NCBI GenBank assembly: GCA_021650915.1
Contig: CP091279.1
Coordinates: 3,030,001 to 3,062,000 of the forward strand
Source of the DNA: Candidatus Brocadia sp.
Lineage (GTDB): Bacteria > Planctomycetota > Brocadiia > Brocadiales > Brocadiaceae
Direction of reading: 5' to 3'
DNA length: 32,000 bases
Part shown: piece after piece, positions 1 through 9,663 of the stretch
How the letters are laid out: each line of letters opens with the position of its first letter
Numbering within the stretch: position 1 is the first letter of the stretch
Position numbers and translations under genes: made by a program
Notes under the pieces: generated by a model
Database searches by the model: none
Told to the model about the DNA's origin: nothing
Seen by the model: only the letters and a program-made list of their open reading frames with translations

Positions 1-1172
1 AATTTCGCGTACGAAGCGTGGAGAGTATCGTGGCGGAGATGAAGGACCTTTACTTTCATCACGATGTCAGGATCTTTAATTTTCAGGATGACAACTTCTT
101 TCTCCCAAAACCGGAACATGCGCTCCGCCGTTTCGAGGAGCTGAGAGATGGATTGAAACATGAGGGAATCGAAGGGATTGCTATTGCTGTGAAGGCGCGG
201 CCCGATAGCATTACCTATGACTCGATCCGGGTGCTGGATGGGCTGGGGCTGTTTCGCGTATTCCTGGGAGTAGAGAATGCGCATGAGAACGGTTTACGCA
301 ACTTGAACCGGAAATGTACCCTTGACCAGATCCTGAATGCACTGCGCATCCTCAATGACTTTGATGTGCATCTTGCCTATAATTTACTCATGTTCGAACC
401 CGACACCGTTTTAGATGATATCCTGGTCAACTTACGCTTTATCGAACGGCATATCGAGAATCCCTTTAATTTTTGCCGCGCAGAGGCTTATCCCGGCACC
501 GGGCTGGAAGTGAAACTCCGGGCCGAAGGCAGGCTGCTTGGTGATTATTTTGGATTCGATTACCGACTGAAAGACCCGCGATCCGAGGCGTTTCACCAAA
601 TCGCTAATTACGCATTCTTTGACCGTAATTTCAGTGATTTCGGGCTGCACTACTTCAATATGCAGGTGGATTTCTATTACCAACTGCTGCGTCGGTTCCA
701 TCCTGAAGTGCTGATGCAGACACTCCGTGCGGCTGTGCGTAATTTCATCAAACAGACCAACCTGGACACGTATGAGTGCCTTTGCCAAATCTATGATTTT
801 GTGGCAACGGCAGATGCGAATGACCACGTCATGGTCCGTGGTTTTGCACGAGAGATGAGAGAACGCGTTGATGAAAGGAGCAGGGGCTTGCATTCCCAGG
901 GTGAGCGTATCCTGCGCTGGTTGAGCGACAGGTATGATCGTCGCGGCAAGGATGTCGGAGTGAAAAGATTTATGTCAAATACCGGGGCGTTGTCCTTCCT
1001 GAACTGCAAACCGATGCCATATTCCAGCCGGGACAGTTTGGAAAAACTGGAATTTGTGACGTCAAAGGCTGAATGGATGGATGAGGCAGACCTGCTGGGC
1101 GTAGCGTCTTCGCCCATCCCTTACAACATATTTAAGAACCGATTTGCTGAACAAAAAGAAGAGAGGAGGTAA
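1..1172 (+). CDS. Radical SAM enzyme, C-terminal ~390 aa (5'-truncated by window edge); resembles the B12-binding-domain (class B) subgroup
   Basis: The reading frame is open to nt 3 (FRVRSVESIVAEM...), so the GTG at 18 is only the first start-like codon. It shows the motif series typical downstream of the radical-SAM Cys triad: RS-x-E-x-V-x-E, IFNFQDDNF, GLFRVFLGVENAHENGLRNLNRK, NLLMFEPDT. The CxxxCxxC triad would lie upstream and is not visible. There is no Cys-rich SPASM-like tail. Confidence 0.6.
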   Translation, partial: FRVRSVESIVAEMKDLYFHHDVRIFNFQDDNFFLPKPEHALRRFEELRDGLKHEGIEGIAIAVKARPDSITYDSIRVLDGLGLFRVFLGVENAHENGLRNLNRKCTLDQILNALRILNDFDVHLAYNLLMFEPDTVLDDILVNLRFIERHIENPFNFCRAEAYPGTGLEVKLRAEGRLLGDYFGFDYRLKDPRSEAFHQIANYAFFDRNFSDFGLHYFNMQVDFYYQLLRRFHPEVLMQTLRAAVRNFIKQTNLDTYECLCQIYDFVATADANDHVMVRGFAREMRERVDERSRGLHSQGERILRWLSDRYDRRGKDVGVKRFMSNTGALSFLNCKPMPYSSRDSLEKLEFVTSKAEWMDEADLLGVASSPIPYNIFKNRFAEQKEERR

Positions 1173-1292
1173 AAAACTTGCAAAAGAAGACGCTTTTGCA
1201 GGTTCCTGCGAAAAACCAGAATCTTATAGTGAAAACGGGGGAAGACAGGTTTCCCTCACCTTTTACCTTACGCCATCATAAGGAGGTGCAAT

Positions 1293-2003
1293 ATGGACGG
1301 AAAGACTTTTGCTCGTATACGTGATTGGGTGGAACCGGCGCATCCGGCGGTCGTAAAATTGTATGATGATCTGATCGATATCTATACCCGGATTCGTGAG
1401 AGATATCAGAAGGAAATAGATAATGCATTTGACAGGATATCACGGCAGATTGGGTTTGTGGTAACTACCACGGTGCCGGTCGTGTTCGAAATAGGAGACA
1501 AGGGTGAATTTAAGCGTATGGGCATGGGGGCGGAGCATCTCAAAGATACGCTTTTTGATAAGGAGCTATCTAAAGTATTTGGACCACATCCAGACCCGTG
1601 GAAGGTCGCAGCGGGGAAATACAATCTGTACTTAGTCTGGTTCGATGCACTCCATTTGAAGCTACGGACGGACTGGATGGAGCCTGCGCATTTTTTCAGG
1701 GAAAGGTTTGCGGCGGACATTGCATCAGGACCCATGGCCGGGATCAGCAGTAGGGCATTAAAACAGGGGTGGGAATGGCAGGAACCAGCGCACTGGTTTG
1801 ACCCGGGAATAGCCATTGCGGTAGAAGAGTTGGTGCTGATCGAGGCGATCGACCGGGTATATCCCGAGCTGCGTCTTGTGGATCGGGTGGCCTTTGTCCG
1901 GGATGCCCTCCGGAAGCGAGTAAGGCCTGAAGTGATGGAACCGGCGCATTTCCACCGAGTTGAGAAAGGGATATGTCCGGAAGGTACTGAGGGGAACCGC
2001 TAA
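1293..2003 (+). CDS. Hypothetical protein with four W/V-x-E-P-A-H repeats (function unknown)
   Basis: AGGAGG at 1281-1286 lies 6 nt before the ATG. The ORF encodes 236 aa. EPAH codons occur at 1332-1343, 1680-1691, 1782-1793 and 1938-1949. I recognise no family. Confidence 0.7.
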   Translation: MDGKTFARIRDWVEPAHPAVVKLYDDLIDIYTRIRERYQKEIDNAFDRISRQIGFVVTTTVPVVFEIGDKGEFKRMGMGAEHLKDTLFDKELSKVFGPHPDPWKVAAGKYNLYLVWFDALHLKLRTDWMEPAHFFRERFAADIASGPMAGISSRALKQGWEWQEPAHWFDPGIAIAVEELVLIEAIDRVYPELRLVDRVAFVRDALRKRVRPEVMEPAHFHRVEKGICPEGTEGNR

Positions 2004-2047
2004 GCTCACGTCAGGGATCGATGAACACAAAACAAGGAGGGAGAGAT

Positions 2048-4417
2048 ATGGGGAATGAAGAAAAGAAACAATCGGAGGAGAAGAGGGAGTCTCTTGATCA
2101 AAAAGAAATTCACAGCGAAGATTTTCAGTATGTCTTGAAAGAATTGCTCAACGCGTATCAGCCCCTTCTGGAAGAGGAACTGAATCGGGCTAAAAATCCC
2201 GAGCAATTAAAAAAGGAAGCGGAAGGAAGACCGCCAAACTGCGACGATGAGATCGCATTGGCTAACCGGATCTTTGGAAAATTCTTTACCGGGGAAGTAG
2301 CCATACGGCTGCTTCCGGCAGAGGGCCGGGAGCTGATGGGGCCAATTGACCGGTGGCGCTGGTGCTATTTGCATATCCGTTGCTGCATTATTTTTGGATG
2401 GCTGGTTTGCCGTGCTCCCCGGACCTTTCGGGCGTTTGTCTATTATCTGTATCATTATTGGCGTTGTATTCGCCAGATGCTGAATACGCCGGTTCACAGC
2501 CCGCTCACTCCGGAAGAGCGGCAGGATTTTCAAACGCTGGTCCAGGCGCTGGCCGGCGCTTACAAGCCATACCTGACCGACCAGCTGGCCACCGTTGAAT
2601 TCCCGGTTGGTATACCGGATGAGGTGCTGAGCGGAAAGATTGACTGTTTCGAGGGCGAGATGGAAACGGCCGCGGTCTTCGAACAGTTTCTGACCGTTGA
2701 GGCTGCGCAGGCGCTTCTTGGGAAAGAGGCTTTTGCCGTCCACAGCAAAGAGACGTTTTTCTGGTTTTGTCGTTGCTGGTGCCTGTGTGCGATCCGTTTC
2801 GGCTGCTGCCTGGCGCACGCACACAATTTTGTCGACAGGCTGTACTGTTTATATTATTTCCGCCAGTGTCTTCGTGAGTGCTTTCGTCCCCTGACCTGTA
2901 ATCTGACCAATCCGCACGATTGTGTCGAGGAGCAGGAGATCGTGGTAGCAAACATCTTGCGCGGTGTTGAAATCAGAGGCACTGCCACCGGCGCCTTTTG
3001 TAGTCATTACACCATCGAGTGGAGACAAGGAGGCATCGGCCCCTGGCAGAACAATGGTGTTCACTATCCGGGCGGTGCGGCACAAGGCACCTGTGGCGTA
3101 GTTAATGGCACACTGGGCTACTTGGCAACTTTTCCGTTTGTCGCGCCCGGCCTGGTGGAGATTCGCGTATGCGTCTTCTCTACGCAAGGTGGAGTACCCC
3201 AGTGCTGCACGATTCAGTTTGAGCTCCAGCGCAATCTGGTGTGGATCAGAGGAATCGAAAGTCCCGAGGCAGAGGACCCGCCAGGACTCTTTGATCCTAC
3301 GGCCCAGTTGGTTGATGGAGCAGGTGTTGTTCGATCCTTTGGAACGGCACTGCGGGTCTACGGCAGCGCTTCTGTGGGCGGGTGCGTGGGCAGGGAGATC
3401 AAGCGATACACGCTGAGCTATCACTCGGGTTTTGTGGTGAATCCTCTCCTTCCCGGCTTCATCCAGTTCTGGCAAGTTGATTATAACACCCCACTCCAAA
3501 TCGATGCGGGACTCAACCGAATCTTTGAGGATGTACTGACCAGCAGGTGGAGAGAATGGCATTGGCCACCAGGCCTGTGCGCTCCCATTTCCAACTGGCT
3601 ACAGGATGCATACTGGTCGACGCAGGTGCCTCAATCCTTCCCCATCGTTCCGTCAGAACCGCCGTGCCCTGCGCCTGCAATGTGGAACTCAACACCACTG
3701 CCCCTGATTAACTGCCAAAGCGGAAGATATACGCTACGCCTCACGGTAGAGGACACGGCCAGTGGCATCAAGCACGACCTGCAACAGGTGTGGTTCGACA
3801 ACAAGGATATCCATGGCAAGATCATGCAGATCTTTCCGGTGCCGCCGTGCGCCACGATCAACCTCAGCCAGTTTGCGGCAGTGGGCGGTAATTGCACTGT
3901 GCCATGGCCGGCTCAGCTTCACGGTATCGCATACGATGAATACATCGAAGAGGGAAACTTAGCGCCGCCCAGTGATAACTATGCTGGGTATCAGCTCTGG
4001 ATCAAGAAAGACGGTGGCCCCTGGTTCCCCATTACCATCCCTGGTCCGGTAGCGCCAGGATCGCCGCCAGCGCCTCCATGGGGACCTCCGTTCATGGGCA
4101 CTTCCCGCGTGGGCGAACCAGGCGTGCGCTGCGCTAATGCCAGTCCTCCGCCGGGCGTCATCCCTCCTTTAACACCCGGCATCCTGGCTATCCTTGACCT
4201 GAGAAGACTGGACGCTGTGTGCAATCCCGCTGAACCGGCTTTGACGCTGGACCGGGCGCATATCGATGCCAACGGGAACGAAGTGCCAGGCGAGTGCTGC
4301 GGATACATCATCTGGCTACGGGTCCGTGACACGACCATTTGTCCCAGCCTCTCGCCAGGCTGTCATCAGGTCGATGACTTTTTCCCATTTTGCATCTGTA
4401 ACGATCTAAGGAGATAG
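2048..4417 (+). CDS. Large Cys/Trp/Pro-rich hypothetical protein (~789 aa) with a duplicated N-terminal module and a beta-rich C-terminal region
   Basis: The ORF runs 2021-4417. AAGGAGG at 2034-2040 lies 7 nt before the ATG at 2048, so I prefer 2048 as the start (2021 is the alternative). The frame is long and uninterrupted. I count 37 Cys in the 2021 ORF translation. The N-terminus is charged (MGNEEKKQSEEKRES) and has no signal peptide. Confidence 0.75.
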   Translation: MGNEEKKQSEEKRESLDQKEIHSEDFQYVLKELLNAYQPLLEEELNRAKNPEQLKKEAEGRPPNCDDEIALANRIFGKFFTGEVAIRLLPAEGRELMGPIDRWRWCYLHIRCCIIFGWLVCRAPRTFRAFVYYLYHYWRCIRQMLNTPVHSPLTPEERQDFQTLVQALAGAYKPYLTDQLATVEFPVGIPDEVLSGKIDCFEGEMETAAVFEQFLTVEAAQALLGKEAFAVHSKETFFWFCRCWCLCAIRFGCCLAHAHNFVDRLYCLYYFRQCLRECFRPLTCNLTNPHDCVEEQEIVVANILRGVEIRGTATGAFCSHYTIEWRQGGIGPWQNNGVHYPGGAAQGTCGVVNGTLGYLATFPFVAPGLVEIRVCVFSTQGGVPQCCTIQFELQRNLVWIRGIESPEAEDPPGLFDPTAQLVDGAGVVRSFGTALRVYGSASVGGCVGREIKRYTLSYHSGFVVNPLLPGFIQFWQVDYNTPLQIDAGLNRIFEDVLTSRWREWHWPPGLCAPISNWLQDAYWSTQVPQSFPIVPSEPPCPAPAMWNSTPLPLINCQSGRYTLRLTVEDTASGIKHDLQQVWFDNKDIHGKIMQIFPVPPCATINLSQFAAVGGNCTVPWPAQLHGIAYDEYIEEGNLAPPSDNYAGYQLWIKKDGGPWFPITIPGPVAPGSPPAPPWGPPFMGTSRVGEPGVRCANASPPPGVIPPLTPGILAILDLRRLDAVCNPAEPALTLDRAHIDANGNEVPGECCGYIIWLRVRDTTICPSLSPGCHQVDDFFPFCICNDLRR

Positions 4418-4441
4418 ATGTCAACCACGACGATCAAACGT

Positions 4442-4473
4442 CCAGGGCTTGGTCATTTTAGACCAAGCCCTGG
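4442..4473 (+). other. Perfect 13-bp stem / 6-nt loop hairpin between cassette genes
   Basis: CCAGGGCTTGGTC (4442-4454), ATTTTA loop, GACCAAGCCCTGG (4461-4473). No U-tract follows, so it is not a canonical intrinsic terminator. It may be an intercistronic RNA stability or processing element. Confidence 0.6.
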
Positions 4474-4514
4474 GTGTGAATGCCGTATTTGCTTGACAGG
4501 TGAGGCACAAAGGG

Positions 4515-4937
4515 ATGATAAGTGAGTTGGGTTTCTGGCCAAGGTTCGTTCTGGCCGTTCTCGCGACCTGGCGAATTACCCATTTGCTGGCGCGCGAGGA
4601 CGGCCCGGGTGGCCTTATTGCGCGTTTCCGGGCGCGTTTGGGCAGTGGACTTGCCGGGAAACTCATGGATTGCTTTCAGTGCCTCAGCTTTTGGATTGCA
4701 GCGCCAATGGCTTTCTTTGTATGCAGGAAGCCGCTGGATATGTTGTTTACCTGGCTGGCGCTGTCCGGCGCAGCTTGTCTCCTGGAACGAGTGGGCAGCG
4801 AGCCGGTGGTCATCCAACCAATTTCTCAGGAAAAGAAAGGAGGTTTTGACAATGGGATGTTGTGGTCAGAAGCGAGAGACACTCAGGAGCACGTTAACCC
4901 AGAAGACGATGCCACCCGGCACACAACCCGGATCTGA
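4515..4937 (+). CDS. DUF1360-type small membrane protein
   Basis: The WRITHLLAREDGP ... CFQCLSFWIA pattern (W-R-h-T-x-L ... C-x-x-C-x-S-x-W) plus hydrophobic segments matches what I recall of Pfam DUF1360. The start is either ATG 4515 or GTG 4500. Confidence 0.6.
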   Translation: MISELGFWPRFVLAVLATWRITHLLAREDGPGGLIARFRARLGSGLAGKLMDCFQCLSFWIAAPMAFFVCRKPLDMLFTWLALSGAACLLERVGSEPVVIQPISQEKKGGFDNGMLWSEARDTQEHVNPEDDATRHTTRI

Positions 4938-5160
4938 GAGTAGTCCGCCTCCCGCTGTCGGCAGGCAGGCGCAAGGGCGACCGGTGATCGCAACCTCTTC
5001 CTCTGCAGTAATTCTTCACTATTTGGAAAGATCGCACATTCTCGTGCGGGGGCCGGCGACAGGACGACAATATGAGTTTTCAGGTTCGTATCCGCATCAG
5101 TCAGTAGATGTGCGTGATGCAGAAGCTCTCTTGCGCACCCGTTTCTTTCGTAAGGCGTGA
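4852..5160 (+). CDS. Hypothetical 102-aa protein (MGCCGQKR... N-terminus, Pro/Ser-rich linker, conserved-looking C-terminal ~45 aa)
   Basis: GAAAGGAGG at 4835-4843 lies 8 nt before the ATG at 4852. The ORF extends 223 nt past the DUF1360 stop and overlaps the DUF1360 gene by 86 nt in another frame. The upstream part of ORF 4522-5160 is treated as a GC-driven open frame. Confidence 0.5.
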   Translation: MGCCGQKRETLRSTLTQKTMPPGTQPGSESSPPPAVGRQAQGRPVIATSSSAVILHYLERSHILVRGPATGRQYEFSGSYPHQSVDVRDAEALLRTRFFRKA

Positions 5161-5387
5161 TCCGGAACATGGTGAAATCGGTAGTCCTGGTTTTCTTCCC
5201 GTTTTAAAAAACCCCTCACGGGTAGTGCAGGAGCGGCTGCTATAATTTGGTAGAAAGACATTCATATCCAGTCAAGCAAACGCTTCGTTCCTCCTTTTTT
5301 CTACCCACCAGGTGACGTGTCCCCTGCACGCCTTACGTACCTGCATAAGGCCAGAATTTAGCCCATCCTAAAAATCTTGGTCATTAG

Positions 5388-5416
5388 TTGACTTTTTCCT
5401 TCTAAAGTGATATATA
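5388..5416 (+). promoter_or_regulatory. Sigma70-like promoter candidate for the SNF2 gene
   Basis: TTGACT (5388-5393), a 17-nt spacer, then TATATA (5411-5416), about 64 nt upstream of the ATG at 5480. Confidence 0.45.
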
Positions 5417-5479
5417 TCTTGTATATTAATTTTCACTTCCATATCGTGACACAATATCCATTCCCAGGAGTATGAACGT

Positions 5480-8215
5480 ATGAGCAATACCATCTTAGAC
5501 TCTATTACACCCGAATATGTCAGATCCATTAGCAACAATGATGTCTATAATCGTGGTTTCTCCTATTATAGGAGCGGATGTGTTCGTCACGTGAAATACG
5601 ACGGTGTACTGCTAAAGGCAGAAGTTAAAGGCAACGAATCGGCGTCATACAGTGTGTTTATTCTTGCCGATGGAAATGAGATATTTGAGATGGATTGTGA
5701 ATGTTTTTATGCCTCGGATGGTGAGATCTGTAAACACATTGTTGCTACGCTCTTGAAGTGGATTGAGCAGAGAAAAAAAACACAGGACAAAAGGCAGCTG
5801 TCTCTGCGGCAAAAAACGTTTTTTGATCAGGACGATATTTTTCCACAAATCGGTCCCTTTTCTTCTTACCAGCCTGGTCCTGCGGATATTTTGAGCGAAA
5901 TCTTTTCTGACTTTGGTCATTTCAACATCAAGGTGGACTTGCTCAACGGCGGGCCACAACTCGAACTCAAACTGGTTTCTGGTCAATGCAGCGAGACCGT
6001 GCTTCACATCTCAGCCGAAAAAAGCCCGCATGTTTTTGAAAAATTAACGAGATTTCCCGGTAACACGGTAGAATTGTCCGAGAAGGCGCGAAAGGTCAAG
6101 CTTTATAAGAATCCACTCGTCCCCTATCTCCATGCGGATATAAACACAGAAGGACATATAGAATTATCACCTGTCCTGAAACCGAAGAGTTCCGGCAAAA
6201 AAGAGGGGCAAGCCGTCCGGTGGGAGCAATTGGATGGGAACAGGATCGGTGAACAGTGGGTGTGGCAGAACAATTCCTACAGACCCATCGAGTCCATTCC
6301 TTACCCGTTGAAACCCTATTTCAATAAACAAAAACCGCTGGTTTATAAAGAAAAGGCCGCGATTGACTTCCTTAAACTCGACCTTGAACCATTACTCAAT
6401 GATGCTTCCTTTCAACCTTCAGAACAGTTACAATGCGTAAAGGTTCATGTCAAGCCGGATGTTTCCCATGTGCAGGTGGAGTCCTGCGATAATGACTGGC
6501 TATGGTTAGACCCTACCTATACTGTCGGACGGCATACTATCACCCTTTCCGATATCCTGTCATGCATTGATAAAAGCCACTGCATGAGAAAGGGCTCAGA
6601 TTATATAGAAATTCCCAAAGATATCATGGAACTCTGGCAGCGCGGAAACGGCGTCATTGAAAACGGGCGGATCAAGATGCCTAAATTAGGTTACCTGCGC
6701 ACCCGTGCCGAATGCGACAAGAAGGCGAAGGTAACGGCATGTCATGAGACGCAGAAATTTTTGGCAAACTTTGACCGTATCACACCGCCGCAACCGGCGC
6801 CCGCTGTTTCTTCCTACAAAGGAGAGTTGCGCGTCTATCAGCAATCGGGCTATGACTGGCTCTGGTTCCTGCATACCAACAATTTTAACGGCATCCTGGC
6901 GGATGAGATGGGATTGGGCAAGACGCATCAGGCAATGATGATCATCCTCTCTGCCTTGCAAAACGAGCCGAACGTGCCGAACCTGGTCGTTTGCCCCACC
7001 TCGGTGCTGGATCACTGGAAATCAAAGTTCCAGACCTATGCTCCTGAATTGCAGGTAGCCCTCTTTTATGGAAAAGAGAGAAACACCCTCCTTTCATGCA
7101 ACACGCCCTCCGTGGTATTAACCACTTACAGCATCCTTTCCCGCGATGCGGAAGTCCTGAACAAGGTTTCCTGGAACTACATTGTGCTGGACGAGGCGCA
7201 AAAGATCAAGAATCACAAGACACAGATGTGCAAGGCAACCAAGTTTCTTAACTCAAGGCGCCGCCTGGCGCTGACCGGCACACCGATTGAAAACCGGCTG
7301 ACGGAATTGTGGTCGATCTTTGACTTCCTCATGCCTGGCTATCTGGGAAGCGTGGATGATTTCAGGAAACGATACGAGAACCCGATCACGAAATACCAGG
7401 ACAATGAAAAACGCGAGATATTAAAGAAGATCATTCATCCCTTTAAATTAAGGCGGCTCAAGAAGGATGTGCTCACGGAGCTGCCGCCAAAGACCGAAGA
7501 AAAGCGGTATTGCACGCTGGCGCCGGCTCAGGTTGTCATGTATAAAGACATCATTAGTGAACGGGGAAGCAAACTCATTGCAAAGTTAAAGGACGAAAGC
7601 CAGCCGGTGGAATACATCCACATCTTTGCCTTACTTACCAAACTGAAACGGCTCTGCGACCATCCCAAACTGGTGCTGAACGGAAATTCCCCCAAAGAGG
7701 CGACCTCGGGCAAATTCGAGCTGTTCAAGGAGATCATGGAAGAGACCCTGGAGTCGGGAGAAAAGGTTGTGGTCTTTTCTCAGTATCTGGAGATGCTGGA
7801 CATCATTGGCGACTGGCTGAATGGCATCGATGTCAGATACGAGACCTTGCGCGGGAGCACAACAAATCGCGGCAAGGTTGTCGAGAGATTTCAGAATGAT
7901 CCTGATTGCAACGTCTTTCTAGGGAGTCTGATGGCAGGCGGTTTGGGCATCGACCTGACCTCTGCCTCGGTGGTCATCCACTATGATCGTTGGTGGAACG
8001 CCGCGCGGGAAGACCAGGCCACGGACCGCGTCCACCGTATCGGCCAGACCCGAGGAGTCCAGGTCTTCAAGCTCATCACCAGAGGCACCCTGGAAGAAAA
8101 GATCGACGCCATGATCACCACCAAGGCCACCCTCATGAATTCCGTCGTGGAGTCAGACGATGCCGTGTTCAAGACGTTTTCGAGGAAGGAACTGATTGAG
8201 TTGTTGACGTTTTGA
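5480..8215 (+). CDS. SNF2-family DEAD/H helicase-like ATPase with N-terminal SWIM zinc finger
   Basis: The SWIM CxC...CxH motif is CECFYASDGEICKH (nt 5696-5737). The SNF2 motifs are ADEMGLGKT (around 6899-6928), DEAQ (7190-7201), LTGTPIEN and QATDRVHRIGQ. AGGAG lies upstream of the ATG. Confidence 0.9.
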   Translation: MSNTILDSITPEYVRSISNNDVYNRGFSYYRSGCVRHVKYDGVLLKAEVKGNESASYSVFILADGNEIFEMDCECFYASDGEICKHIVATLLKWIEQRKKTQDKRQLSLRQKTFFDQDDIFPQIGPFSSYQPGPADILSEIFSDFGHFNIKVDLLNGGPQLELKLVSGQCSETVLHISAEKSPHVFEKLTRFPGNTVELSEKARKVKLYKNPLVPYLHADINTEGHIELSPVLKPKSSGKKEGQAVRWEQLDGNRIGEQWVWQNNSYRPIESIPYPLKPYFNKQKPLVYKEKAAIDFLKLDLEPLLNDASFQPSEQLQCVKVHVKPDVSHVQVESCDNDWLWLDPTYTVGRHTITLSDILSCIDKSHCMRKGSDYIEIPKDIMELWQRGNGVIENGRIKMPKLGYLRTRAECDKKAKVTACHETQKFLANFDRITPPQPAPAVSSYKGELRVYQQSGYDWLWFLHTNNFNGILADEMGLGKTHQAMMIILSALQNEPNVPNLVVCPTSVLDHWKSKFQTYAPELQVALFYGKERNTLLSCNTPSVVLTTYSILSRDAEVLNKVSWNYIVLDEAQKIKNHKTQMCKATKFLNSRRRLALTGTPIENRLTELWSIFDFLMPGYLGSVDDFRKRYENPITKYQDNEKREILKKIIHPFKLRRLKKDVLTELPPKTEEKRYCTLAPAQVVMYKDIISERGSKLIAKLKDESQPVEYIHIFALLTKLKRLCDHPKLVLNGNSPKEATSGKFELFKEIMEETLESGEKVVVFSQYLEMLDIIGDWLNGIDVRYETLRGSTTNRGKVVERFQNDPDCNVFLGSLMAGGLGIDLTSASVVIHYDRWWNAAREDQATDRVHRIGQTRGVQVFKLITRGTLEEKIDAMITTKATLMNSVVESDDAVFKTFSRKELIELLTF

Positions 8216-8363: not shown

Positions 8364-8954
8364 ATGTCCGTAGACCAGTTGCCTAAATTTATTAAAGAGC
8401 ACTACGAGATTCACGAGTGGCGACATGCCATGGCCATCCTCCGACATGATTTTACGTCAGAGTATGGCGACATTTGTGACGTTTTGACGCGATTTCGCTT
8501 AAGAAAAAGCTGGATTACCATTGGAGGAGGACGTAAGTCAAAGGTCGCCGATTGGATCGATGTAGAACTGCTTCAGAAAGGATGGAAACCAAAGAATTTT
8601 GACACGAAGATTACTGTTGATGAGAAAGTAATGGAGTCACCGACACACGAAGTCGATTGTTTCAAGAACCGGGTTGCTCTTGAAATAGAGTGGAATAACA
8701 AAGATCCATTTTTCGACCGCGATCTAAACAATTTTCGCTTGTTATTTGATCTTCGTGCAATTTCCGTTGGGGTCATAATAACGCGTTGTGATGAGTTGCA
8801 GGAAATTTTTGATAGCCTCGGTCGTGGGGCATCATATGGAGCCTCGACTACACACATGTCTAAACTTCTTCCAAGAATTCAAGGTGGAGGCGGCGCCGGA
8901 TGTCCTCTTCTTGTCTTTGGTATTAGGAGAAATCTTTATGCAGAAGATTGTTAA
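8364..8954 (+). CDS. Type II restriction endonuclease, BglII/BstYI/BamHI-fold family
   Basis: HEVDCFKNRVALEIEWNNKDPFFDRDLNNFRLLF gives D98-x8-E107-x-E109 (nt 8655-8690). This is the same spacing as the BglII D84-x8-E93-x-Q95 catalytic core, followed by the Y/F-P-F-h-x-x-x-h segment and then VGVIITR. A methyltransferase gene is adjacent. Confidence 0.65.
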   Translation: MSVDQLPKFIKEHYEIHEWRHAMAILRHDFTSEYGDICDVLTRFRLRKSWITIGGGRKSKVADWIDVELLQKGWKPKNFDTKITVDEKVMESPTHEVDCFKNRVALEIEWNNKDPFFDRDLNNFRLLFDLRAISVGVIITRCDELQEIFDSLGRGASYGASTTHMSKLLPRIQGGGGAGCPLLVFGIRRNLYAEDC

Positions 8955-9663
8955 TATTGCTCAGCCCACGGCAGCACAGGATTTCATGTCTAAGGTCTGT
9001 GGCCTTTATTCAACCATTCTCGCTGATCCTCCCTGGCGTTTCGAGAACCGTACTGGAAAGATGGCGCCAGAGCACCAGAGACTCCTTCGCTATCCGACAA
9101 TGACCATTGAAGAGATTTGTGAGATCCCGGTATCTCAAGTTGCCGCTGTGAACTCACACCTGTATCTCTGGGTCCCAAATGCCTTGCTCGCCGAAGGCCT
9201 TGAAGTAATGAAACGTTGGGGTTTTACTTACAAAACCAACCTCGTCTGGTATAAGATCAGGAAGGACGGAGGCCCCGACGGCCGTGGTGTTGGATTCTAT
9301 TTCCGAAATGTTACAGAACTCGTATTGTTTGGTATTCGTGGGCATATGAGAACGCTTCAACCGGGGCGGACACAGGTAAACATCATCTCATCCCGGAAGA
9401 GGGAGCATTCACGAAAACCAAATCAGATCTACGATGTTATCGAAAACTGCTCGCCTGGTCCTTACCTGGAGTTGTTCGCCAGATTCAGGCGGGAGGGATG
9501 GGATCAGTGGGGAAACGAGGATGTGGAGAAAAACAGTTTACATGGAGTTGCACGAAGAAAGGGCCATGGTGCCAATCAGATGAGATTGTTCGAACGACCA
9601 GTTCAATATGAGGTTAATAAGGCATCGAATAAATCTTCAGTTAAGAAACGTAAATCGATTTAA
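8938..9663 (+). CDS. MT-A70-family DNA N6-adenine methyltransferase
   Basis: The DPPW catalytic motif is at 9025-9036 (ILADPPWRFENRTGK). YPTMTIEEI, HLYLWV and EHSRKP are typical of MT-A70. AGGAGA at 8925-8930 precedes the ATG at 8938. The gene overlaps the REase gene by 17 nt. Confidence 0.85.
   Translation: MQKIVNIAQPTAAQDFMSKVCGLYSTILADPPWRFENRTGKMAPEHQRLLRYPTMTIEEICEIPVSQVAAVNSHLYLWVPNALLAEGLEVMKRWGFTYKTNLVWYKIRKDGGPDGRGVGFYFRNVTELVLFGIRGHMRTLQPGRTQVNIISSRKREHSRKPNQIYDVIENCSPGPYLELFARFRREGWDQWGNEDVEKNSLHGVARRKGHGANQMRLFERPVQYEVNKASNKSSVKKRKSI

Follow-up and report, generated by a model that had tools for sequence, protein, structure and literature searches.

Five packed genes in a Candidatus Brocadia genome probably belong to two independent modules, a predicted B12-binding radical SAM pair and a cysteine-rich three-gene set

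A run of five tightly packed genes on one strand of a Candidatus Brocadia genome raises the question of whether close spacing reflects a single pathway or separate units that have come to lie side by side. The genes, here called g1 to g5, were delimited from the open reading frames (ORFs) and sequence at positions 1 to 5160 of a 32,000-nucleotide (nt) stretch of Candidatus Brocadia sp. (contig CP091279.1 of assembly GCA_021650915.1, positions 3,030,001 to 3,062,000), which we refer to as the window. An initial annotation had read them as one cassette anchored by the radical S-adenosylmethionine (SAM) enzyme encoded by g1, with more components probably lying upstream. A comparison of gene neighborhoods instead splits the set, and we put at about 85% the probability that the five genes represent two independent modules: module A, comprising g1 and g2, and module B, comprising g3, g4, and g5. 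The genes are as follows, with product lengths in amino acids (aa).

1..1172 (codon phase 3..1172), plus strand: g1, 3' part, 389 aa corresponding to residues 204 to 592 of a 592-aa protein; the left edge of the window cuts the gene
1293..2003, plus strand: g2, 236 aa with four E-P-A-H motifs; module A
2048..4417, plus strand: g3, 789 aa, Cys rich; anchor of module B
4515..4937, plus strand: g4, 140 aa, DUF1360-like; module B
4852..5160, plus strand: g5, 102 aa, beginning MGCCGQKR; module B

This layout was described correctly at the outset: the intergenic gaps are 120 nt (g1-g2), 44 nt (g2-g3), and 97 nt (g3-g4), and g4 and g5 share 86 nt. The frame of g5 is +1 relative to that of g4.

RESULTS AND DISCUSSION

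Conserved neighborhoods divide the five genes

We compared 160 loci in all, 80 recovered by a g3 profile search of genome contigs from GTDB species representatives spanning more than 10 phyla and 80 recovered by a g2 profile search of metagenome contigs. A g1 homologue lies directly upstream of g2 in 69 of the 80 g2 loci, with 59 to 87% identity where full length, and the remaining 11 loci end within approximately 220 nt of g2. Where at least 300 nt of upstream DNA is available, the pairing holds without exception (66/66), as it does where there is room for a full-length g1 (42/42). No g3, g4, or g5 homologue occurs in any of the 80 g2 loci, including 25 with at least 2.5 kb of downstream sequence. 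Around g3, tblastn locates g4 in 68 and g5 in 69 of the 80 loci, always in the order g3, g4, g5, and of the 73 loci that continue for 900 nt or more downstream, 63 contain both genes. Neither g1 nor g2 was found in any g3 locus, 69 of which extend at least 2.7 kb upstream, and the same is true of the caspase and the 223-aa protein encoded upstream of g1 in Candidatus Brocadia.

Because g1-g2 and g3-g4-g5 are each conserved apart and no mixed locus was found among the 160, the neighborhoods argue for two independent modules. The co-occurrence predicted for a radical SAM-anchored cassette thus stands for g1 and g2 and fails for the rest, as g3, g4, and g5 were never found beside g1 or g2 in other organisms. 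The nearest relatives of each module follow the same division. In the loci most similar to module A (g1 and g2 at 83 to 87% identity; L093 and L096 at 85 to 87%), tblastx synteny with the Candidatus Brocadia contig is limited to g1 and g2. In the two most similar to module B (L177 and L178, with g3 at 83% and 86% identity), g3 is followed by g4 (and g5) and is preceded by a toxin-antitoxin pair or sugar metabolism genes, with no module A. Clustering of all flanking ORFs in all loci identified no further conserved neighbor for either module. Judging from the loci compared, the juxtaposition of A and B is confined to this Candidatus Brocadia lineage.

Beyond this lineage, the g1-g2 pair was found between cell wall and flagellar genes in a closed Hydrogenedentota chromosome and on a contig of a Methanosarcinales metagenome-assembled genome (MAG). 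Module B was recovered from 80 species of more than 10 phyla, including Planctomycetota, Acidobacteriota, Alpha-, Beta-, and Gammaproteobacteria, Desulfobacterota, Actinomycetota, Gemmatimonadota, NC10/Rokubacteria, Bacteroidota, Verrucomicrobiota, Chloroflexota, and Deferribacteres. Cultured carriers include Solirubrobacter ginsenosidimutans, Pelomonas sp. Root1444, Neoroseomonas soli, and Desulfogranum marinum. The full-length identity of 41 to 86% across phyla, combined with a foreign GC content, suggests that module B has spread horizontally. Neither module was detected in IMG/VR or PLSDB, and a phage or plasmid origin is accordingly unsupported. Both modules appear to be self-contained and horizontally mobile units that in Candidatus Brocadia occupy an accessory island, rich in GC, close to the origin of replication. 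Separately, a Pyrinomonadaceae MAG carries a different radical SAM gene (L054, 12407 to 13951; 29% identity to g1) approximately 2 kb downstream of module B; this neighbor, the only case among the 80 loci, is probably coincidental.

Their conservation shows all five genes to be real. The scans of all products against Pfam, NCBIfam, PADLOC, and PHROG returned nothing beyond the radical SAM and B12-binding domains and a marginal DUF1360 match, in line with the radical SAM (PF04055) and DUF1360 (PF07098) hits that had been expected for g1 and g4. PDB sequence searches, run with each protein alone and with g3, g2, and g5 profiles, returned nothing except a match to OxsB for g1. The three products initially regarded as orphans, those of g2, g3, and g5, therefore remain so, with no family match worth naming in any of these five resources.

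Module A pairs a predicted B12-binding radical SAM enzyme with an EPAH-motif protein

The part of g1 inside the window matches PF04055 at 42.2 bits (cutoff, 29.5), and the full-length protein of another assembly of this organism (L001) matches at 64.8 bits. On longer contigs the protein is 583 to 592 aa long, with an N-terminal B12-binding domain followed by the radical SAM core. Two of its features lie outside the window, upstream of the left edge: the PF02310 domain (residues 12 to 119 of the L001 protein; 66.3 bits with a cutoff of 32.1), which had been anticipated as a possible addition, and the [4Fe-4S] motif C183-x3-C-x2-C, read as C183-W-R-N-C-A-F-C190. From this domain order, g1 is predicted to be a class B (cobalamin-binding) radical SAM enzyme.

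Every named NCBIfam family leaves g1 far below its cutoff, the best scores being those for HpnR (97.9 bits against a cutoff of 650), HpnJ (93.6 against 577.6), and BchE (90 against 481). The same applies to the RiPP (ribosomally synthesized and posttranslationally modified peptide) C-methyltransferase family TIGR03975 (74.6 against 281.85) and to the methyl-coenzyme M reductase (MCR) glutamine methyltransferase family TIGR04014 (56 against 360). We also considered g1 as a ladderane-associated B12 radical SAM enzyme and rejected this assignment despite the anammox host, as g1 scores 74.8 bits against TIGR04072, for which the cutoff is 360. By these scores, g1 is placed in an unnamed subfamily outside all curated families. 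The nearest solved structure by sequence is OxsB (5ul2; E = 1.5e-13, with residues 29 to 352 aligned), an enzyme of oxetanocin synthesis that acts on a nucleotide. The two proteins share the B12-binding plus radical SAM architecture. The relationship is distant. Approximately 200 C-terminal aa of g1 are unmatched, and OxsB is not known to have an EPAH-type partner.

The partner g2 has 655 homologues that are 210 to 290 aa in size and 45 to 86% identical over their whole length. The Candidatus Brocadia protein carries the EPAH repeats first noted, four of them, at residues 14, 130, 164, and 216 (nt 1332 to 1343, 1680 to 1691, 1782 to 1793, and 1938 to 1949). Among 69 distinct g2 sequences the motif E-P-[AV]-H is invariant, and approximately 10 residues of context are conserved as [VLR]-[RLG]-[PR]-[DEG]-[WV]-x-E-P-A-H-[PFW]. 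The number of copies per homologue ranges from 2 to 8, with 4 the most common, and expansion occurs in tandem within linkers, as in the fourfold WKEPAH of one homologue (L154). An AlphaFold2 (AF2) model built on a shallow 25-sequence alignment contains a confident alpha/beta core at approximately residues 18 to 125 and 177 to 209, with a predicted local distance difference test (pLDDT) score above 90, and all four EPAH motifs lie inside or border low-pLDDT segments. A fold search of the core against the PDB found nothing significant, the best matches being TonB/TolA C-terminal-like folds at E > 0.1, and PADLOC gave g2 only a chance-level match (Cmr6, E = 0.045). A literature search on EPAH with radical SAM returned no functional information.

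The strict pairing with an enzyme, together with a short, unvarying motif that recurs along flexible segments, suggests that g2 could be a protein substrate of g1. The folded core would serve as a docking element, and the EPAH motifs, carried on disordered loops and tails, would be where a radical modification is made, most likely a C-methylation. The B12-binding and radical SAM domains of g1 are intact, and C-methylation of protein residues is a known reaction of cobalamin radical SAM enzymes, as with a glutamine of MCR (PMC9401015). We regard this substrate role, which is drawn from the pairing and the motif pattern, as plausible but somewhat short of an even chance. Several points weigh against it. 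The conservation of g2 along its whole length is unlike that of typical RiPP precursors, no protease or exporter travels with the pair among the clustered flanking ORFs, and g2 could alternatively assist or regulate the enzyme as a subunit, or bind metal. In addition, the low pLDDT around the motifs may come partly from the shallow alignment.

The comparison with protein- and peptide-modifying class B enzymes of the TIGR04014 and TIGR03975 systems is mixed in the same way. Like these enzymes, g1 has an N-terminal B12 domain, the radical SAM core, and the CxxxCxxC motif, and it is encoded beside a motif-repeat protein that is a plausible substrate. The differences are that g1 falls far under the cutoffs of both families, that g2 is not a leader-core peptide, and that the protease or exporter of such systems is missing. 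The possibility that g2 is a RiPP precursor was examined on its own and rejected: no NCBIfam or Pfam leader family matches, homologues remain 50 to 86% identical from end to end, and the pair has no third conserved gene. The only RiPP-like trait of g1-g2 is the presence of repeated invariant motifs in disordered segments.

Module B is anchored by a widespread Cys-rich protein

At least 563 homologues of g3, 41 to 86% identical over the full length, are distributed across more than 10 phyla, and when 1.84 billion representatives were scanned in full with HMMER, just 279 clusters emerged at E <= 0.001, many of them fragments. By sequence, g3 therefore defines a compact family. The AF2 model (mean pLDDT, 82) predicts an all-helical N-terminal region of approximately 280 residues followed by beta-sandwich domains, and the C-terminal ~500 aa correspond to about four tandem immunoglobulin-like (Ig-like)/PKD-like beta domains. 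The internal duplication and the high Cys content reported initially are both borne out. The N-terminal halves are 27% identical over 131 aa (E = 3e-12), each half closing in a helical hairpin with many Cys, Trp, Phe, and Arg residues, and the protein contains 37 Cys residues (4.7%), 17 of them within residues 100 to 292. Two vicinal pairs, C112/113 and C750/751, never vary, and a third, C253/254, hardly does. Four further pairs (65/200, 121/253, 318/349, and 375/386) are jointly present or absent in all 80 sequences (phi = 1.0), a raw count in which phylogenetic relatedness is not factored. Pair 121/253 is retained in all 67 loci that have both g4 and g5 and is gone from five of the eight loci that have neither.

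Structural searches place the beta region of g3 in a broad fold class. Foldseek with g3 against PDB and BFVD returned generic Ig-like matches with TM-scores of 0.1 to 0.2 and 6 to 12% identity, and residues 283 to 789 gave a fold-class match with E values down to 2.6e-6. A PKD-rich protein matches g3 profile positions 550 to 612, and distant relatives of g3 carry GEVED, PKD, and transthyretin-like domains. The fold class of this region resembles that of tandem Ig-like/PKD surface proteins such as cadherins, pilins, S-layer proteins, and the MG domains of alpha-2-macroglobulin. The difference from these proteins lies at the N terminus, as no member of the g3 family has a signal peptide in the alignment, and the Cys-rich helical N-domain is unmatched among them.

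The N-domain varies among relatives that keep the beta part. In P0244 and P0258 the N terminus has four hairpins with a C-x3-C ladder. In P0259, P0316, P0322, and P0346 the N-domain is swapped for a plain two-helix transmembrane hairpin (KD19, 2.6 to 3.0), and in the P0259 type this hairpin has basic flanks on both sides, which predicts that the beta part lies on the same side as the N terminus, in the cytoplasm. The only P0259-type locus with flanking sequence (L173) lacks g4 and g5. In g3 itself, the hydropathy of the Cys-rich helices is borderline (KD19, 1.3 to 1.5), and we treat their membrane insertion as a candidate property only, not an established one.

Two small overlapping genes, g4 and g5, complete module B

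The product of g4 matches PF07098 (DUF1360) at 21.5 bits, just above the cutoff of 21, over profile positions 52 to 100 of 102, and two orthologues match the same half at 28.6 and 26.4 bits. The g4 protein is thus probably a divergent DUF1360 relative, matching the C-terminal half of the profile, including the CxxC-containing helix. DUF1360 is a family of no assigned function for which a literature search returned no functional information, and its tie to g3 and to an overlapping g5 is undescribed. Hydropathy indicates three hydrophobic helices in g4, the second of which holds the conserved C53-x-x-C56, and a motif W-R-x-T-H-L-L-x-x-E-D-G-P is conserved as well. The C-terminal tail is not conserved.

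The g5 protein has a near-universal N terminus, M-(G/S/A/P/T)-C-C-G-Q-K/N-R, in which M1, C3, C4, and G5 are invariant in the alignment. Behind it come a Pro/Ser/Ala linker that varies and a C-terminal domain of ~50 aa that is conserved; no export signal was seen. The overlap with g4 is conserved across loci, mostly at 74 to 122 nt and in the +1 frame, and 67 of 70 orthologous loci have a Shine-Dalgarno (SD)-like site for g5 in the corresponding position. In the window, the signals of the g4-g5 region are as follows.

4836..4843, plus strand: Shine-Dalgarno site of g5, AAAGGAGG, 8 nt ahead of the ATG at 4852 and inside the coding tail of g4
4438..4477, plus strand: perfect hairpin between g3 and g4, stem of 17 bp

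Two other readings of the overlap were rejected. A g4-g5 frameshift fusion is at odds with the separate conserved SD site and start of g5 in 67 of 70 loci and with the unconserved tail of g4. A 212-aa ORF at 4522 to 5160, which arises as the g5 frame stays open across nearly all of g4, is conserved in its last 102 codons alone and probably owes its length to high GC content. Gene calls for g5 are missing from the NCBI assemblies of this organism (L001 to L004) and sporadic elsewhere. Protein database entries for g5 number approximately one-tenth of those for g3, as against its detection by tblastn in most g3 loci, and gene callers appear to miss it systematically. Not every g3 locus has the full set: in L028, L049, and L092, g5 comes straight after g3 without g4, and L010, L016, L033, L034, L053, L074, L079, and L089 contain neither gene, these being the eight loci of which five encode a g3 without Cys121 and Cys253.

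The hairpin in the 97-nt g3-g4 spacer, seen in the initial annotation, is confirmed. The spacer folds at a free energy of -43.3 kcal/mol (z = -4.6), and none of 200 shuffled sequences folds as well. No U-tract follows the stem, and the hairpin is absent from the list of terminator-like sites. In other loci the g3-g4 spacer has a median length of ~4 nt, and a stem of at least 10 bp occurs in 9 of 69. We therefore rejected the hairpin as a component of module B; it is lineage specific, being found in this lineage and a few others.

A tentative thiol-based assembly

The Cys patterns of the three proteins suggest a possible role for module B. The g3, g4, and g5 products would form a membrane-associated assembly whose chemistry would take place on Cys thiols, either by binding and relaying a soft metal or metalloid or by dithiol-disulfide exchange, with the N-terminal CC head of g5 acting as a mobile arm on its flexible linker. 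Consistent with this idea are the invariant vicinal Cys residues in g3 and g5 (C3/4 in the latter), the CxxC of g4, the copresence of Cys pairs in g3, the tracking of pair 121/253 with g4 and g5, and the absence of g4 and g5 from the one locus at which a P0259-type g3 lacks the Cys-rich N-domain. The conserved SD site of g5 also counts in favor of an assembly of this kind.

As a working model we take a soft-metal relay of the kind found in Mer proteins, in which the metal would pass from one Cys pair to another by ligand exchange (PMC3466566, PMC5715351). The suggested likeness of module B to the MerT, MerF, and MerE transporters and to the C-terminal CC of MerA (PMC3466566, PMC5715351) would be functional only. 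It concerns motif patterns, namely, invariant CC pairs located in hydrophobic helices, a further CC at the end of a flexible arm, and a small membrane protein with three helices and Cys residues. It differs in that there is no sequence homology and that no MerR, MerA, or MerP is encoded near module B. The MerT, MerP, MerF, MerC, HMA, and copper storage families are not matched by any module B product, so that the resemblance lies in the Cys patterns alone.

The island around the modules

GC content is 55 to 56% in g3 to g5 and 50 to 52% in g1 and g2, compared with 41% in dnaA, and the module region is compositionally foreign. Upstream of g1, a longer contig of this organism (L001, 6196 to 7852) encodes a 223-aa protein with a lipoprotein-like N terminus and a caspase-family peptidase (PF00656, E = 3e-26). 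The prediction that more components of the cassette would be found upstream is not supported by this DNA, in which the rest of g1 is preceded by these two genes, neither of which accompanies the modules elsewhere. Beyond the caspase are dnaA-dnaN-gyrB in some assemblies and other genes in L002. Because the flanking genes differ among assemblies, the island appears to border the origin region with a variable left flank.

Directly downstream of module B is a defense-type island. An SNF2 helicase (window positions 5480 to 8215), whose N terminus carries a SWIM-like Cys/His motif, matches DpdE (E = 1e-130) and ZorD (E = 1e-119) in PADLOC, and it is followed by a restriction-modification pair consisting of a BglII-type endonuclease (8364 to 8954) and an MT-A70 methyltransferase (8788 to 9663). 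The rest of the window, 9767 to 32000, is core or housekeeping genome with 39 to 51% GC per 1-kb window and includes the following genes.

9767 to 32000: aminotransferase, Obg GTPase, RNase E/G, HPr-Enzyme I fusion, DinG-like helicase
9767 to 32000: O-methyltransferase, GlmS, LpxD, beta-ketoacyl synthase

Within the module region, the SD sites are strong ahead of g2 (TAAGGAGGT), g3 (AAGGAGGGAG), and g5 and weak ahead of g4, which has only AAAGGG, all as initially reported; another ATG for g3 at 2021 would give a product of 798 aa. Directly 3' of the g1 stop codon there is an 8-bp hairpin (TGCAAAAG...CTTTTGCA; window positions 1179 to 1200) that is terminator-like on the minus strand only. An Rfam scan of positions 1 to 6000 gave zero matches. 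The identical g2 protein is recorded in 110 blocks of public assemblies, and the five-gene arrangement is the same in eight independent assemblies of this organism, which represent essentially one species. One locus from GCA_000987375.1 (L004) departs in its gene calls: g3 (4949 to 6838) is called as 629 aa versus 789 aa, with tblastn identity ending at 6802, and the 223-aa protein is called as 214 aa. The short g3 call may reflect a frameshift, a truncation, or an assembly error.

Alternative readings

The shared strand, short gaps, and good SD sites, the lack of a predicted terminator between g2 and g3, and the orphan or nearly orphan status of all five products are what a single operon or pathway would present, one that has the repeat-bearing or Cys-rich proteins as targets of the radical SAM enzyme. 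The neighborhood comparison largely refutes this reading, and we consider it highly improbable: g1 and g2 are in none of the 69 informative module B loci and g3 is in none of the 25 informative module A loci, neither module accompanies the nearest relatives of the other, and the modules are unlike in GC content. Promoter-like and terminator-like matches in positions 1 to 5600 are no more numerous than the shuffled expectation and therefore speak neither for nor against cotranscription of the five genes. Some points do count against full independence. Adjacency is one form of linkage only, the comparison covers neighboring DNA, and with a 44-nt g2-g3 gap that contains no predicted terminator the modules may be cotranscribed in Candidatus Brocadia. 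The same gap, and an arrangement shared by all eight assemblies, would fit a lineage-specific recruitment in which modules of separate origin are now transcribed together and cooperate. We think this very unlikely, as homologues 83 to 86% identical to g3 occur with no module A near them, the sequences carry no mark of adaptation, and the agreement of eight assemblies of about one species provides no independent support. Only slightly less remote is the idea that the modules belong to an antiphage defense island, one or both being new defense systems. The helicase and restriction-modification pair directly downstream, the caspase-like peptidase upstream, the atypical regional GC content, and a weak PADLOC match of g1 to the candidate PDC-M51A (E = 7.5e-10) all point in that direction. 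The g1 match is only at the level of the radical SAM fold, g2 to g5 have no PADLOC or PHROG match apart from the chance-level one of g2, and the modules are missing from IMG/VR and PLSDB. Elsewhere they stand in ordinary contexts (mur and flagellar genes; RNase III/Era/RecO), and no defense gene recurs beside them. Two independent modules remain the reading that we favor.

For module B itself, the thiol relay is an idea that we hold with low confidence, the odds being clearly against it. Searches with g3, its N-domain, g4, and g5 against Pfam and NCBIfam at E values up to 10 found no metal-handling or redox homology, and g4 is absent from 10 of the 73 loci with enough downstream DNA. The covarying Cys pairs would equally fit structural disulfides of an exported protein, though g3 has no signal peptide. 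This leads to the main rival, in which g3 is a disulfide-stapled structural or adhesive protein of the cell envelope with two small helpers, an explanation that we likewise rate as improbable. It would account for the 500 C-terminal aa of tandem Ig-like/PKD-like domains, as in adhesins, S-layers, and cadherins, for the surface-type domains of the distant relatives, and for the perfect covariation of Cys pairs, which resemble intradomain disulfides. The absence of an export signal from g5 and of a signal peptide from every g3 family member speaks against an envelope location, as do the N-in/C-in topology predicted from the P0259-type hairpin, with the beta part in the cytoplasm, and the TM-scores below 0.2 for all structural matches.

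Implications

Neither module is described in the searchable literature. Module A appears to combine a B12-dependent radical SAM enzyme with a cognate protein, a kind of system that is familiar although this pair is new, and module B has, by the comparisons made here, no recognizable counterpart among known systems. At its broadest, and with considerable doubt, module A might represent a previously unknown B12-dependent radical modification of an EPAH carrier protein in anaerobic bacteria and archaea, and module B a horizontally spread cysteine relay machine. The latter would consist of a Cys-laddered scaffold tethered to the membrane, a partner of the DUF1360 type, and an N-terminal vicinal dithiol arm encoded by an overlapping gene, and it would carry a soft metal or metalloid or a dithiol-disulfide signal. 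Both modules are at present leads for experiment rather than demonstrated new mechanisms.

The locus is a case of tight spacing and a shared strand mimicking an operon, in which 160 comparative loci point to a chance juxtaposition of two units. For work on anammox bacteria, the point to note is that g1 is distinct from the ladderane-associated B12 radical SAM enzyme. Module B brings forward a large uncharacterized family of proteins of ~790 residues without a Pfam domain, together with a small gene, g5, that is routinely missed by annotation owing to the overlap with its neighbor. The g1-g2 pair would offer a clean system for a new B12-dependent radical SAM protein modification, with an invariant target motif present in 2 to 8 copies.

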